Of a stretch of 64,000 bases of DNA, positions 31,722 to 46,447 are shown piece by piece (positions within the stretch are counted from its first letter, which is position 1; each line of letters opens with the position of its first letter). A program made the translations under genes and the position numbers. The notes under the pieces are model-generated. The model made no database searches, was not told the origin of the DNA, and saw only the letters and a program-made list of their open reading frames with translations. Source of the stretch: an uncultured Holophagae bacterium (GTDB lineage: Bacteria; Acidobacteriota; Thermoanaerobaculia; Thermoanaerobaculales; Sulfomarinibacteraceae); assembly GCA_963801995.1 (NCBI GenBank), contig CAWDGW010000012.1:78940-142939 (forward strand), in the 5' to 3' direction.

Positions 31722-32141
31722 ATGGAGTTGACACCAGAAGTCGTGCAGCGCCTGGTGGCGGCTGCCGCCAAGGTCCGCGACCGAGCCCATGCCCCCTACT
31801 CGCGCTTCTGCGTCGGTGCTGCCTTGCTGCTCTCCAACAACGAGTTGATCACAGGCTGCAACGTGGAAAACGCCTCGTTCGGGCTCAGCGTCTGCGCTGA
31901 ACGCAACGCGGTGGCGGCCGGGGTGGCCGCCGGAACCACTTCCTTTCTGGCCTTGGCCGTGGTGACCGACACGTCCCCGCCGTCCAGCCCCTGCGGCGCT
32001 TGCCGCCAGGTCCTGGCCGAGTTCGGTGACTTTCCGGTCATTCTGGCGAACACAACCGGCGAACGCCGGATGACGAGCGTCGCCGAACTGCTGCCTCGGG
32101 CATTTTCGGGCACCGCCCTTCCAAACCGCGTTAAACGTTAG
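31722..32141 (+). CDS. cdd: cytidine deaminase
   Basis: APYSRF.VGAA, GCNVEN, CAER, PCGACRQ. Confidence 0.95.
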   Translation: MELTPEVVQRLVAAAAKVRDRAHAPYSRFCVGAALLLSNNELITGCNVENASFGLSVCAERNAVAAGVAAGTTSFLALAVVTDTSPPSSPCGACRQVLAEFGDFPVILANTTGERRMTSVAELLPRAFSGTALPNRVKR

Positions 32142-33000
32142 GCTCATCCGGAATTCCGTGAGGTGGTGGATGACAGCGACCAGGGACAGATTCAGCTGAC
32201 AGCGACAGGGGCCGGTGGCGGCGTCAGGTGACGGCGACGGCGTCAGAGTTGGACGGGTGCGGGCTACCGGGGATTGAGCAGTCGCCATGTCATGGCACGC
32301 ACCTCATCGAATCCCTGCAGGACCTTCTCCGCCCCGGTTCCATTGACGGCACTGGCAGCAGCAAGCAGTCGCAGGTGGCTGTCGACCTCCTTGGCCGAGG
32401 CGTAGGCGATCCGCCAGTGGTGCTGGCGATCTCTCCCGGATCGGCCGTGCCCTTCCGCTAAGTTGGCGGGGACCGAGCTGGCCGACCGGATCAGCTGATC
32501 GGCGATGGACTTGAGCGGAGCCGGAACTCTCAAAACCAGCGTAATTGCGATGCCTGCTGCTTCGAGGGCTTTGGTGTAGGCCACGAGATTGGTGTTGCTG
32601 ACGGCTTTGGACATGGTCACCTCCGGGTCGTTCATGCCCTTCAACAAGCTGCCAGGGAGGGCGGAGGGGCTGGCAGGGGGGCCTTGGAGATGGCACGACG
32701 AATTGTGGTGCGGCCGTCCCGGCTGCAAGACTCGGCCGTAAGGTCAGCAGGCCAGAGGCCCGCACCACAATCTCCCCCCTGCCAGCCCCTCCGCCCTCCC
32801 TGGCAGCTATCCGTCCCCGTCCCATAGAACGACCCGGAGGGGGCCATGCAGCCGCTGCACATCTGATCGCTGCCTCTGCCCCGGTCGCTGACCACAGTCG
32901 CTGCCCGCTGTTTCCTGCCCCCGTCGCTGCATCCTGACCCTGCCGCTGGGTTCGGGAACGGAAACAGCAACACCCGACATCACGCTTTCCCGGATGAACC
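32141..33000. mobile_element. non-autonomous ISL3-like cassette carrying a four-helix-bundle gene, copy 1 (860 bp)
   Basis: TIRs GGCTCATCCGGAATTCCGTG / CACGCTTTCCCGGATGAACC; AAACGTTA directly repeated at 32133-32140 and 33001-33008; no transposase. Confidence 0.8.
32264..32614 (-). CDS. four helix bundle protein (23S rRNA IVP/Avd-like)
   Basis: DQLIRSASSVPANLAEGHGR...IAYASAKE; GGAGG RBS. Confidence 0.92.
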   Translation of the reverse strand: MSKAVSNTNLVAYTKALEAAGIAITLVLRVPAPLKSIADQLIRSASSVPANLAEGHGRSGRDRQHHWRIAYASAKEVDSHLRLLAAASAVNGTGAEKVLQGFDEVRAMTWRLLNPR

Positions 33001-42395: not shown

Positions 42396-43403
42396 ATGCA
42401 CTGCCCTTCAATCATCGCGATCTCGATGACCATGGCCGCCGTTGTGCTTACGGGCTGCCAGGTGCCATCACCCGAAGCCGGACCAGAGGCCGTCGCGGTC
42501 ACCGGGCCCTACCTGGGCCAGCAACCTCCGGGCATGGAGCCGGCCCCATTCGCGATCGAGGTCCTGGGAGCGGCGTTCGATATCCGGGACACCGCGTGGA
42601 TGCCGTCCGGGAATCAGCTGTTCTACACGGTCTGGGGCCGGAGCCGAGGCACCATCGTCACCGTCTCGCAGTCCGACGGCCAGTGGAACGCGCCCGAGAT
42701 CGCCCCCTTTTCTGGACAGTGGCCAGCGCTCGAGGCCTTTGTGACCCCTGCCGGCGACGCGCTCTACTTCGTGTCCAAACGGCCCCTGGAGGTCGGCGAC
42801 GAAGAGAAGGACTGGGACATCTGGATGACCCAGCTTGGCGATGACGGTTGGGATGAACCCAAGAATCTGGGTCCCGTCATCAACACCGACGAAGGCGAGT
42901 ACTTCCCGTCGCTCACGACCGACGGCAGCCTCTATTTCACGGCCCGCCGGGAGGACAGCCTGGGCGGAGAGGACATTTACCGGTCGCAGCGACTGGCCGA
43001 TGGGAGCTGGGCCGAGCCGGAAAACCTGGGACCGGCGATCAACTCCCCCGGGCCCGAGTTCAACGCCCTCATCGCACCGGACGAGAGCTTCCTGATCTTC
43101 GGGTCGGTCCGGGAGGGCGACGTGGGCGGCGGCGACCTCCACATCGCCTTCCGGGGCGAGGGCGGCGAATGGCTGCCCGCGAAAAACATGGGCGAGCCGG
43201 TCAACAGCCCGGCCATCGACTACTGCCCGGCGCTCTCCCCTGACGGACGATACTTGTTCTTCACCAGTGGGCGGACGTTGGATGGAGGCTCCAAACCCAC
43301 CACCTATGAGGAGCTGGCCGACGGTCTGCGTGACCCGTTCAACGGCTCCGACAACCTCTGGTGGGTGGACGCCCGAGTCATCGACGGCCTTCGAGGGCGG
43401 TGA
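42396..43403 (+). CDS. PD40/TolB-like beta-propeller lipoprotein
   Basis: LTGC lipobox, GPYLGQ.PPG, repeated W..P.NLG..IN, SPDGRYLFFTS. Confidence 0.88.
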   Translation: MHCPSIIAISMTMAAVVLTGCQVPSPEAGPEAVAVTGPYLGQQPPGMEPAPFAIEVLGAAFDIRDTAWMPSGNQLFYTVWGRSRGTIVTVSQSDGQWNAPEIAPFSGQWPALEAFVTPAGDALYFVSKRPLEVGDEEKDWDIWMTQLGDDGWDEPKNLGPVINTDEGEYFPSLTTDGSLYFTARREDSLGGEDIYRSQRLADGSWAEPENLGPAINSPGPEFNALIAPDESFLIFGSVREGDVGGGDLHIAFRGEGGEWLPAKNMGEPVNSPAIDYCPALSPDGRYLFFTSGRTLDGGSKPTTYEELADGLRDPFNGSDNLWWVDARVIDGLRGR

Positions 43404-43503
43404 TCGAAACAGCGAGGTCCACTCGTTGTGCCTGCTTTCAGGCTCAGCTCTGGGGCTTAAAGGTTTAAAGGTTAGAGGTTTAAAGGTTTAAGGTTAAAGG
43501 TTT

Positions 43504-44353
43504 GGCTCATCCGGGAAAACGTGAGGTGGGGGTCGATCGATTTCGGACTTCACAACGGCACCCGCCCGCCCGAAGAGGAACCGCGGCTTCATCCGCGGAG
43601 ACAGCAATCAGGGACAGCGTCAGAAACCAGCGGCAGGGACCCGCGGCAGCGTCAGTTGACAGCGTCAGTATCGGAGAACCGGGCGCGCTCAGATGGGATT
43701 GAGCAGGCGCCACGTCATCGCACGAACTTGGTCGAAGGTCTCCAAGGCGTTCTCTGCCCCGATTCCATTGACTGCACCAGCGGCGGCGAGGAGTCGCAGG
43801 TGACTGTCGACCTCTTTGGCCGAGGCATAGGCGATCCGCCAGTGGTTCAACCGGTCTCGTCCAAACCGGCCGTGGCCTTCAGCGATGTTGGCCGGGACCG
43901 AGCTTGCCGACCGGATCACCTGATCGGCAATCGATTTCAGAGGAGCGGGAACCCTCATAACGAGCTTGATGGCGATGCCTGCCGCTTCAAGGGCTTTCTG
44001 CTGGGCTACGAGATTGGTGTTCGTGACGGCTCAGGACTGGTCACCTCCGGGTCGTTCATGCTCACCCGAATGCTGGCGAGGGGGCCGGTGTCAAGGGTTT
44101 GCCGGCCTTTGGCCGGCCGCATGGCGCCCTTGACACCGGCCCCCTCGCCAGCTATGCCCATTCACCCCGTGAACGACCCGGAGGTGACCATGTGCAATGC
44201 GGCCAAGACAACTGATTGCTGCCGCTGAAGACTGGTTACTGTCCCTGCTCGCTGTTCCCGGTCGCTGCCCCTGACTGCTGTCGCTGCCGCTGAATTTCGG
44301 GTACGGGAACGGGAACGGCGGGAACTTCAACCACACGTTATTCCGGATGAACC
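43504..44353. mobile_element. non-autonomous ISL3-like cassette carrying a four-helix-bundle gene, copy 2 (850 bp)
   Basis: TIRs GGCTCATCCGGGAAAACGTG / CACGTTATTCCGGATGAACC; same architecture as copy 1; no flanking duplication. Confidence 0.78.
43689..44038 (-). pseudogene. four helix bundle protein, 5' end damaged
   Basis: 75/89 aa identical to copy 1 by manual alignment; ATG reads AG and codon 3 is TGA; could restart at ATG 43958. Confidence 0.75.
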
Positions 44354-44359
44354 GAATCT

Positions 44360-46447
44360 TCAATCTTCAATCTTGGAAAGCAGGGCTTCCGCCTCCGCCT
44401 CGACGGTGGTGCCCTTGCCAAGGACCGACGCCCGCCGCAGGTGAGGTTTGGCCAGGAGGTTGTCGCCCTTGGCCAGATAGACCCTGCCGGTACACATCGC
44501 TGTCAAGGGGTTCGCGGGCTCGAGCTCGGCCGCTCGCCGGCAGTGCTGCAGGGCCTCGTCCAACCGCGACTCGGCCTGGTCCACCTCCGCCAGCTCCAAC
44601 CAGACCACCGCTGCCTCCGGCGCCATGATTGCGGCCCGATCGAGCAGGTCACGCGCCGCCTCGAACCCCCCGCTCTGCCGTTCGAGCCGGGCCAGCTCGA
44701 GCAGCACCACCAGGCTCTCTGCCCCGGCTTCAACCGCTTGGCTGAGGATTCTCTGCCCCTCCTCGGGCTCCGGTGCGAGGTGAGCCAAGCCGAGCCAAGC
44801 TGCGGCGGAACGAGGATCCAGGTCCAGTACCTTTCTGTAACCAACACGGGCCTCATCCTCCCGCCCCAAGAAGCGGTAGGTGTCGGCAACACCGAGGGCC
44901 AGGAACTCCGATCTCGGGTTCAGATCGGCAGCTCGCTGCCGAGTCGCCAGCCCTTCATCACCCTGGTTCGCCGCAAGCTGAGCCTCAGCGAGTCGATTGA
45001 GGAAGGGGACGTTGGAGGGGTTGCGCTCCACGAGTCCGGCGAGGATGGCCGCGGCCCTCTCGGCCTTTCCCTTGGCCAACAGTCCCTTGGCCTCCTCGAA
45101 TGACGCCAATAACCCGATCCCGTCCTTGGGATCGATGCCATCGTTCGACCCTTCCGCGGGTCCTTCCACGTAGCCCAGTGCGATCAAGGCTGTCCTGGTT
45201 TCGGCGTCCAGCTCCGGCTCCGCCACGGATCCCGCCGCCGGTCGAGCGGCCAACTCGGCCACGGCCGCCCTCAGCCGCGCCGCTTCCTCCGGCCGGCTCG
45301 CGATCAGATTGGTGCTCTCCGCAGGATCCGAAACCAGATCGTAGAGCTCCGGCCGGGGTGCCCGGATGTACCGCAGCCGGCCTTCCGTGACGGCATGGAG
45401 GGGCGCCCAACCGTAGACCGACCTGGGCATCGTGGCCTCGCTGTAAATCGGCTCCGGAGATCCGGAATCCTCGTCTTTCAGGCCCGGCAGCACCGAACCG
45501 GGAACAACGCCGTCCTGATTCTCGCCGAGCAGAAAAAACAGACTGGCCGCGAGCCGCCGGATCGCCACCGGAGTTTTTACCACCCGACCCTTCGCCATCC
45601 TCGGACCGGCGATGATCAGCGGCACCTCGATGGCAGCGGTGTAGAGGAAGATCCCGTGACTTCGCTCGTCGTGGTCACCGAGGGCTTCGCCGTGGTCGCC
45701 CACCGCGGCCACGACGGCCCCGGGGAACTTGGCCCGAACCGCATCCAGGAGGCGTCCGATCTCGCGGTCAACGAAGGCCACCTCTCCCAGGTACTTCTCC
45801 ACCACGGTGGCGCCCCCAAATTCGGCAGGCGGACGGTACGGAGCATGGGGGTCGTAGTAGTGGACCCAAAGGAAGACAGGGCGTTGGATCGGCTGCCCCG
45901 CAAGCCACGCCAGGGCGGCATCGGTCACGGCATCCGCCGGCCTCTCCGGATAACCGTACTCACCCACCCGTTCAGCCAGCATGACGTCGTCGTAGAGCTC
46001 GAATCCCCGGTTCAGACCGAACCGTCGGTCGAGCACCCGCGATCCAACGAACGCGGCGGTTGAGTAGCCGCGACTCGCGAGCTCTTCCGCCAGAGTGGGG
46101 ACTCCCGGAGGCAGGGTTTCACCGCCGTTCGTGCGAACACCGTGCTGGGGCGGATCCAAGCCGGTGAGCAGGGTGGTGTGGGATGGCAGCGTCAACGGGG
46201 CAGGTGCCACCGCCCTGGCCCAGCGGGTGCCGGAGGCGGCCAAGCCATCCAACACCGGAGTGTGCGAATGACCGCCATAGACCCCGACGGCATCGGCCCG
46301 GGTCGTGTCGAGGGTGATGAGCACAAGGCTCGGCGCTGTCTCCCCGGCCGTGCCGGCAACCGCTTCGGGCGCAGGGCCGACCCCATACGCAAGCGTCAAT
46401 CCGACGAGCACAGCGGAAACACACCGCGGTTTCATGATGGTCAGCAT
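44360..46447 (-). CDS. sulfatase-like hydrolase with C-terminal TPRs
   Basis: LITLDTTRAD, PLTLPSH, HYYDPH, GDHGE, TPRs. Confidence 0.9.
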   Translation of the reverse strand: MLTIMKPRCVSAVLVGLTLAYGVGPAPEAVAGTAGETAPSLVLITLDTTRADAVGVYGGHSHTPVLDGLAASGTRWARAVAPAPLTLPSHTTLLTGLDPPQHGVRTNGGETLPPGVPTLAEELASRGYSTAAFVGSRVLDRRFGLNRGFELYDDVMLAERVGEYGYPERPADAVTDAALAWLAGQPIQRPVFLWVHYYDPHAPYRPPAEFGGATVVEKYLGEVAFVDREIGRLLDAVRAKFPGAVVAAVGDHGEALGDHDERSHGIFLYTAAIEVPLIIAGPRMAKGRVVKTPVAIRRLAASLFFLLGENQDGVVPGSVLPGLKDEDSGSPEPIYSEATMPRSVYGWAPLHAVTEGRLRYIRAPRPELYDLVSDPAESTNLIASRPEEAARLRAAVAELAARPAAGSVAEPELDAETRTALIALGYVEGPAEGSNDGIDPKDGIGLLASFEEAKGLLAKGKAERAAAILAGLVERNPSNVPFLNRLAEAQLAANQGDEGLATRQRAADLNPRSEFLALGVADTYRFLGREDEARVGYRKVLDLDPRSAAAWLGLAHLAPEPEEGQRILSQAVEAGAESLVVLLELARLERQSGGFEAARDLLDRAAIMAPEAAVVWLELAEVDQAESRLDEALQHCRRAAELEPANPLTAMCTGRVYLAKGDNLLAKPHLRRASVLGKGTTVEAEAEALLSKIED

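Follow-up and report, generated by a model that had tools for sequence, protein, structure and literature searches.

The closest known counterparts of the DNA element reported here are mobile insertion cassettes (MICs) and non-autonomous insertion-sequence derivatives that carry cargo genes, in this case of the ISL3 family. The element, an 850-bp cassette termed copy 2, lies in a stretch of 64,000 nucleotides (the window) from an uncultured Holophagae bacterium of the family Sulfomarinibacteraceae (contig CAWDGW010000012.1, positions 78,940 to 142,939; hereafter the source genome), and it holds a gene for a four-helix-bundle protein preceded by a large two-part palindrome, which is the subject of this study. 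The cassette resembles MICs in its ISL3-type ends, its 8-bp target duplication and a passenger in the place of the transposase, as well as in a copy number that is high and very uneven among congeneric species (0 to 73). It is unlike them in carrying as passenger a four-helix-bundle gene that has a large covarying palindrome of its own, and in that the source assembly has one ISL3 transposase gene only, which is broken and without matching ends. The kind of cassette is already known; what is new is the covarying, strand-biased and promoter-like palindrome, and its possible reading as a fold-back promoter.

For the layout of the palindrome the nearest described case is Frpo, in which a single-stranded DNA stem-loop rebuilds the -35 and -10 boxes and conversion to duplex switches the promoter off (PMC9849209). 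As in the account of Frpo given there, the putative boxes of the cassette stand on the template strand, where fold-back would rebuild them with transcription running from the loop toward the gene, and in duplex form they face away from it (PMC9849209). The cassette, in contrast, is chromosomal, transposon-borne and multi-copy, and does not belong to the leading region of a conjugative plasmid; its -10 box amounts only to a TA in an open bubble. The likeness drawn here is one of layout, and the promoter is putative.

The intervening sequences (IVSs) of 23S rRNA genes, such as that of Coxiella burnetii with its S23p protein, are described as small selfish elements whose only open reading frame (ORF) belongs to the same protein family as the cassette gene (PMC4990558), and they have nested inverted repeats in common with it. 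Such IVSs are inserted in a helix of 23S rRNA and excised by RNase III; the cassette, in contrast, is flanked by ordinary genes, ends like a transposon and shows target duplications. Template switching between imperfect repeat arms, as known from quasipalindrome mutagenesis, is described as homogenising and enlarging the arms and inverting the spacer (PMC8604942, PMC13100816, PMC7202029), spacer inversion being among its products when the arms are those of an inverted repeat (PMC8604942). Homogenised arms and inverted spacers are also found in the cassettes; however, template switching is a mutational process and not a function, and alone it predicts neither a strand bias nor a fixed side for the TA. 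Repetitive extragenic palindromic (REP) sequences and REPINs, together with the REP-associated tyrosine transposases (RAYTs), combine a conserved hairpin with variable flanks in a similar way, and a REP-like unit occupies the apex of a second cassette of the window (copy 1), but the palindrome under study is itself no REP unit. The 13 RAYT-like genes of the source genome were considered as a mobilising partner and rejected, their flanking repeats being unrelated to the cassette ends.

Palindrome symmetry and covariation among copies

In copy 2 the repeat search gave an inner inverted repeat with arms of 26 nt, 29 nt apart, and an outer one with arms of 21 nt, 111 nt apart, all arms being 100% complementary to their partners (Table 1). 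The original prediction of a perfect 26-bp repeat with TTGACA facing outward in both directions was thereby borne out. The 21-bp repeat that had been placed over the ribosome-binding site is likewise perfect and spans a GGAGG of Shine-Dalgarno type, but a start codon is missing from the gene that follows. Self-complementary 16-mers, counted when the reverse complement lay at most 200 nt away, numbered 51 in the window and 0–4 in each of 20 block shuffles, which excludes a chance match. An assembly fold-back is excluded as well, since the same architecture recurs in 71 cores of the genome of copy 2 and in 13 genomes (the source genome counted), besides named genome assemblies, and since short contigs from other public runs cover the palindrome (X1, 44038-44164, with 1 difference; X5, 44054-44280, with 2 differences), although for a multi-copy element these contigs may stem from other loci. 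The suspicion of an artefact raised at the outset is thus refuted. A scan against Rfam returned for the palindrome only generic hairpin (miRNA-precursor) matches far under the gathering scores, and a terminator scan found at it no intrinsic terminator, that is, no G+C stem followed by a T run.

The palindrome was surveyed in 127 distinct gene-upstream regions from the source genome and the loci of relatives. A TTGACA palindrome was present in 109 of them, with at least 13 pairs in 104 of the 109. The inner stem measured 26–27 bp in 68 of these 104 copies and broke at 18 bp in 18 others, where the break is a one-base bulge in the copies listed. It consists of a near-invariant 9-bp apex holding TTGACA and of a spacer of 17–18 bp, which extends for 17 nt to the beginning of the following hexamer, its first base included (16 nt on the distal arm of one class). 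Across 71 distinct inner stems, positions 1–8 were essentially invariant, while positions 10–23 showed up to four Watson-Crick pair types, and two to four at all but one; the mean pairwise identity of the 31 distinct 17-nt segments was 0.55, against 0.89 for the apex. Despite this divergence of the spacer, 0.932 of the cells at variable positions in 45 distinct stems were Watson-Crick paired, whereas shuffling of the partner arms among copies gave 0.557 ± 0.026, with a maximum of 0.635 in 1000 shuffles. RNAalifold, applied to 25 diverse cores, predicted 38 pairs, 28 of which had compensatory changes; the outer stem, whose arms cover the Shine-Dalgarno GGAGG and the ATG region and covary across genomes, was included among them. 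The covariation that the original prediction had proposed to look for was therefore found.

An independent second set, taken from named Sulfomarinibacteraceae/Thermoanaerobaculia assemblies from sediments, comprised 79 loci and added 39 further distinct stems; 14 of its 43 distinct stems were perfect. In the survey the inner stem was perfect in 23/50 copies of the source genome and in 14/54 elsewhere, which corresponds to 16 of the 71 distinct stems, the remaining 55 having at least one mismatch. Between the inner and outer stems the main classes of the source genome have a bubble of 17 nt on the distal side and 12–13 nt on the gene side. The apical loop was found in both orientations relative to the gene, in 19 and 7 distinct loops in the source genome and in 16 and 28 elsewhere.

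These comparisons support the view, also put forward in the original prediction, that the symmetry is actively maintained. The joint change of the two arms between copies suggests that the palindrome must fold into a hairpin to work. Perfect arms that differ from copy to copy would result from template switching, which copies one arm to the other; selection and template switching probably both act. Even on a conservative view the cassettes offer a clear natural case in which palindrome arms evolve in concert and loops invert, over about 110 distinct inner stems (71 + 39).

Strand asymmetry and a possible fold-back promoter

The two arms are not equivalent, since a -10-like TA occurs on the gene-distal arm only. 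With a spacing of 17 nt from TTGACA, TA stood at -12/-11 in 62 of 97 distinct distal arms, and in 18 more, of the one-base-bulge class, it was read at a spacing of 16 nt; none of the 97 gene-proximal arms had it. In most copies the stem ends at the T, so that the A is the first unpaired base, and the TA never changes side although the loop flips. The gene-side hexamer, placed in the order TTGACA, 17 nt, hexamer, 6 nt, ATG, mostly has no A at -11 (TT 46, TG 16, AT 12 and GT 9 of 97). The mismatches are also unevenly distributed: among distinct inner-stem mismatches, 31 are G·T wobbles on the template strand (A·C or C·A on the sense strand) and 5 are wobbles on the sense strand (p 1.3e-5), or 26 and 5 when one event is counted per genome, position and type. 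With DNA parameters the template-strand fold was the more stable in 73 of 97 cores and the sense-strand fold in 13 (inner part) or 23 (whole core). Read from the aligned copies, the TA and the mismatch asymmetries both point to the template strand of the gene (in copy 2, the + strand), and template switching does not account for either of them.

These features may be joined in the following way. Template switching within the inverted repeat, an established process by which one arm is copied to the other, would keep the arms alike and flip the loop, while selection would favour hairpin formation by the template strand of the cargo gene. In copy 2 that strand reads, in its 3' half, TTGACA, 17 nt and TATGCC; once folded, it would present a -35 box in duplex form, a duplex spacer of 17 bp and a -10 box that is already open. 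Whenever the template strand is single-stranded, RNA polymerase could then transcribe from the loop along the 5' half into the four-helix gene, whereas in duplex DNA the putative boxes are directed away from it. Possible occasions are replicative copy-out of the cassette, DNA uptake and repair. The putative -35 hexamer is a perfect TTGACA at a spacing of 17 nt, and the second hexamer holds only the TA. Selection for a hairpin on the template strand, with arms kept alike by template switching and the hairpin perhaps acting as an Frpo-like fold-back promoter, is the explanation tentatively preferred here, although it may well prove wrong. That the hairpin is itself a single-strand promoter is more doubtful, and we regard as somewhat unlikely a chromosomal transposon cassette whose fold-back promoter fires the four-helix-bundle gene when its template strand becomes single-stranded.

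Several results weigh against this explanation. A consensus promoter scan gave 0 sites at the palindrome, the second hexamer having no final T, and for this reason TTGACA may not be a -35 box. Among the copies listed, copy 1 and five others have an intact gene and an apex without TTGACA. We know of no single-stranded stage of the cassette. Non-wobble mismatches on either strand make up 62 of the 98 distinct ones, and the copies are related, so that the p-values for wobble are overstated; in the independent replicate set the bias was 9 to 4 and not significant (p 0.27). The outer stem had no template-strand wobble bias and leaned the opposite way (14 on the template strand against 21 on the sense strand; strict count 13 against 24, p 0.10). 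The orientation of the cassettes was not significantly linked to the local GC skew (38 against 29; the long-ORF control, at 1154 against 1203, was uninformative), and exposure at the replication fork is therefore not supported.

An ordinary duplex control region would also produce much of what is seen. An inverted duplication would have set two promoter/start modules back to back, neutral template switching or conversion would keep them alike, and the hairpin would have no function. The described products of template switching, the loops in both orientations and the spacing of TTGACA, hexamer and ATG on the gene side all agree with this explanation, as does the mismatch present in most distinct stems, which means that copies persist without perfect pairing. 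It predicts, however, neither the excess of template-strand G·T wobbles nor the stabler fold of that strand, it leaves unexplained why the TA keeps to the distal arm in every lineage although the loop flips freely, and the gene-side hexamer mostly has no A at -11; we consider it questionable. In IS10 and IS50, an RNA hairpin masks the start site in read-in transcripts. A hairpin of this kind, hiding the Shine-Dalgarno sequence and the ATG in read-in transcripts, would leave internally started transcripts, which have no 5' arm, free to be translated. The outer arms lie over just these signals and covary, any start downstream of the inner arm would by geometry omit the distal arm, and the outer stem leans to sense-strand wobble. 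The inner-stem wobbles nevertheless fall on the wrong strand for a sense RNA, and neither the exact 17-nt spacer nor the conserved TTGACA apex is explained; an RNA hairpin of this function seems improbable.

Protein binding to the duplex or to a cruciform, by a self-regulating four-helix-bundle product or by a transposition cofactor that recognises the 9-bp apex, would fit an apex that is near-invariant while the remaining stem drifts, and a complete core beside every full gene (37/37). Against this, protein subfamily and palindrome class are uncoupled, a third of the terminal-repeat cassettes (23/69) have no complete core, and symmetric double changes at many positions indicate base pairing and not half-site recognition; such a binding site appears very improbable.

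If the hairpin does act as a fold-back promoter on single-stranded DNA, Frpo-type promoters would extend beyond conjugative plasmids, and the enigmatic IVS/Avd-like proteins would be linked to a stage at which mobile DNA is single-stranded; the promoter would then also indicate at what moment the protein is required. Outside diversity-generating retroelements no role is known, to our knowledge, for the widespread protein family 23S-rRNA-IVS/Avd. A literature search on the protein family in combination with repeats, on its accessions and on mobile cassettes (supplements lay outside its scope) returned nothing on such a palindrome, and its part on the protein family gave no report of such cassettes either.

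Ends, target duplications and spread of the cassette

The ends of the cassette were set by aligning close copies to the point where similarity stops. Matches to the terminal repeat numbered 192 genome-wide and formed 70 clean pairs, which spanned 269–894 bp with the exception of one of 5341 bp. A flank duplication of exactly 8 bp was indicated by 412 matching letters of 560, against 284 ± 9 in shuffled pairings, other lengths giving little or no excess. Duplication of 8 bp of target is the rule for ISL3 elements, and at the ISL3 element L193 of genome G015, 7 of the 8 target-duplication letters match. Judging from the arrays observed at cassette flanks, the insertions lie in A+T-rich heptamer arrays of the spacers of the genome, and the cassettes are spread in both orientations over all but two of 17 chromosomal contigs. 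ISL3 transposase genes were found in 7 of 41 genomes of the family, and those of L202 (genome G016) and L193 are flanked by ends that start with the same 8–10 letters as the cassette repeats. Inside the cassette there is no transposase, the sole family match being PF05635. On these features the element is an ISL3-type, transposase-less, MIC-like cassette, and the palindrome is its control region.

The complete core was present in all 37 cassettes with a full gene and absent from 23 of 69 cassettes with terminal repeats, all 23 of which are also without a full gene; since these cassettes have terminal repeats and no complete core, nothing suggests that movement requires the core. An autonomous copy was sought in the source genome and rejected: the only pair of more than 1 kb (5341 bp) most likely consists of two separate elements, and the ISL3 gene is the broken one mentioned above.

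Copy 2 itself is flanked by aaaggttt and gaatcttc, without a target duplication. Different tandem arrays of 7–8 nt adjoin its two ends (43430-43503 and 44354-44380), and the missing duplication fits these differing arrays, for example through recombination between two copies or array turnover. No orthologous empty site was found, the left flank (window 42800-43420) matching nothing usable in five congeneric genomes and none of the short contigs from other public runs bridging the cassette to its flanks. The subterminal regions 43600-43688 and 44205-44300 contain short degenerate repeats of one type, mutually inverted, so that the cassette as a whole is a loose fold-back with the gene inserted in one arm. 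Head-to-tail arrays of 3–4 cassettes, with terminal repeats only 5 nt apart, were seen elsewhere in the source genome (C1:33375-36431 and C3:183949-185916).

Table 1. Features of cassette copy 2, and position of copy 1, in coordinates of the window.
Feature	Position	Strand	Basis or remark
Cassette copy 2, terminal repeat to terminal repeat, 850 bp	43504..44353 (contig C12 122443-123292)		Terminal-inverted-repeat pattern scan and pairing
Left terminal inverted repeat, ~28 bp	43504..43531	+	First letters match ISL3 insertion-sequence ends of related genomes
Terminator-like G+C hairpin with weak T tail, downstream of cargo gene	43581..43598	-	One site found; shuffles also average 1.0, weak alone
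Cargo gene, TIGR02436/PF05635 four-helix-bundle protein, start codon absent	43689..44027	-	Profile scores
Variant patch in place of ATG region	44028..44037	-	One base shorter, in-frame stop
Outer arm, gene-adjacent	44038..44058		Shine-Dalgarno-like GGAGG on - strand; repeat search
Unpaired 13 nt, gene side	44059..44071		No TA at -12/-11
Inner arm, gene side	44072..44097		17-nt variable spacer and conserved apex; TTGACA on - strand (complement of 44089-44094)
Apical loop, 29 nt	44098..44126		Off-centre 7-bp mini-hairpin 44101-44117; orientation varies among copy classes
Inner arm, gene-distal	44127..44152		TTGACA on + strand, 44130-44135
Unpaired 17 nt, distal side	44153..44169	+	Starts TATGCC (44153-44158), 17 nt past TTGACA
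Outer arm, gene-distal	44170..44190		Repeat search
Mini-ORF, 12 codons	44190..44228	+	Not conserved between copies; probably not a gene
Right terminal inverted repeat	44326..44353	-	Alignment of copies and terminal-inverted-repeat scan
Cassette copy 1	32141..33000		Perfect 8-bp target duplication; intact gene on - strand, about 32267-32614

Cargo gene, copy 1 and other variant copies

The cargo of copy 2 scored 57.5 bits against PF05635 (cut-off 33.8) and 59.9 bits against TIGR02436 (NCBIfam), for which the two scores obtained were 58.0 and 59.9 (cut-off 24); no solved structure was found for the protein by sequence. A tblastn search gave 90 matches in the 5.16-Mb source genome, 54 of them full length, and a separate genome search gave 73. 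Proteins 95–96% identical were found with different arm classes, and proteins about 85% identical with the same class, so that protein subfamily and palindrome class are uncoupled. In copy 2 an in-frame TGA lies upstream of the gene, and a start at the first ATG would leave only 89 codons. The patch that destroys the ATG occurs at 21 places in the source genome, against 39 canonical starts, and at none of the loci of other genomes. It is found in copies with differing arm classes and protein subfamilies, and for this reason its distribution suggests spread by conversion between copies, like a null allele. The neighbours of copy 2 are a PD40-repeat gene on one side and a sulfatase/TPR gene on the other.

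It had been proposed that the element may descend from a head-to-head pair of four-helix genes with one arm deleted, and noted that the mini-ORF of the right arm weakly resembles the N-terminus of the cargo. For the class of copy 2 the weak resemblance exists (14/27 nt, z about 2.4), but across 33 distinct copies the median z was 0.3 and the length ranged from 1 to 31 codons, so that the mini-ORF was rejected, as a general feature, both as a gene and as what is left of a cargo N-terminus. Two divergent genes on one shared palindrome were seen in none of the 127 distinct upstream regions; in the sole divergent pair encountered (G016 contig 324), each gene has its own core. With no such pair, no conservation of the mini-ORF and a TA restricted to the distal arm, descent from a head-to-head pair finds no support. 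In genome G016 many four-helix-bundle genes stand as convergent, tail-to-tail pairs, 34–154 nt apart (loci L068, L070, L077, L065, L086, L083 and L020); the two genes of a pair are not equally identical to the query, and wherever the upstream DNA was examined each has a palindrome of its own. Such pairs resemble a form of the cassette with two genes and full symmetry.

The palindrome of copy 1 (32612-32848) has a perfect 35-nt repeat (32647-32681/32774-32808). The expectation that copies 1 and 2 differ in their inner arms while each is perfect was correct, but a common TTGACA layout was not found: the arms of copy 1 have no TTGACA, because its apex has been exchanged for the unrelated REP-like unit. 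This unit (within 32661-32794) is 72 nt long and palindromic, with arms of its own of 21 bp. It also occurs in tandem arrays with a 110-bp period beside a RAYT gene, and singly within other long locus-specific inverted repeats (C13:177770 and C2:241160); further sites in the source genome are C7:45551-46040 and C4:296241-297100.

In four copies (C5:168257, C13:89817, C5:157634 and C11:106436) the inner palindrome is cleanly lost and the outer arms enclose a 28-nt loop; clean loss is the type of excision expected for a hairpin-prone repeat. At C17:977166-977488 of the source genome, a small element with terminal repeats of its own is inserted inside the gene-side TTGACA.
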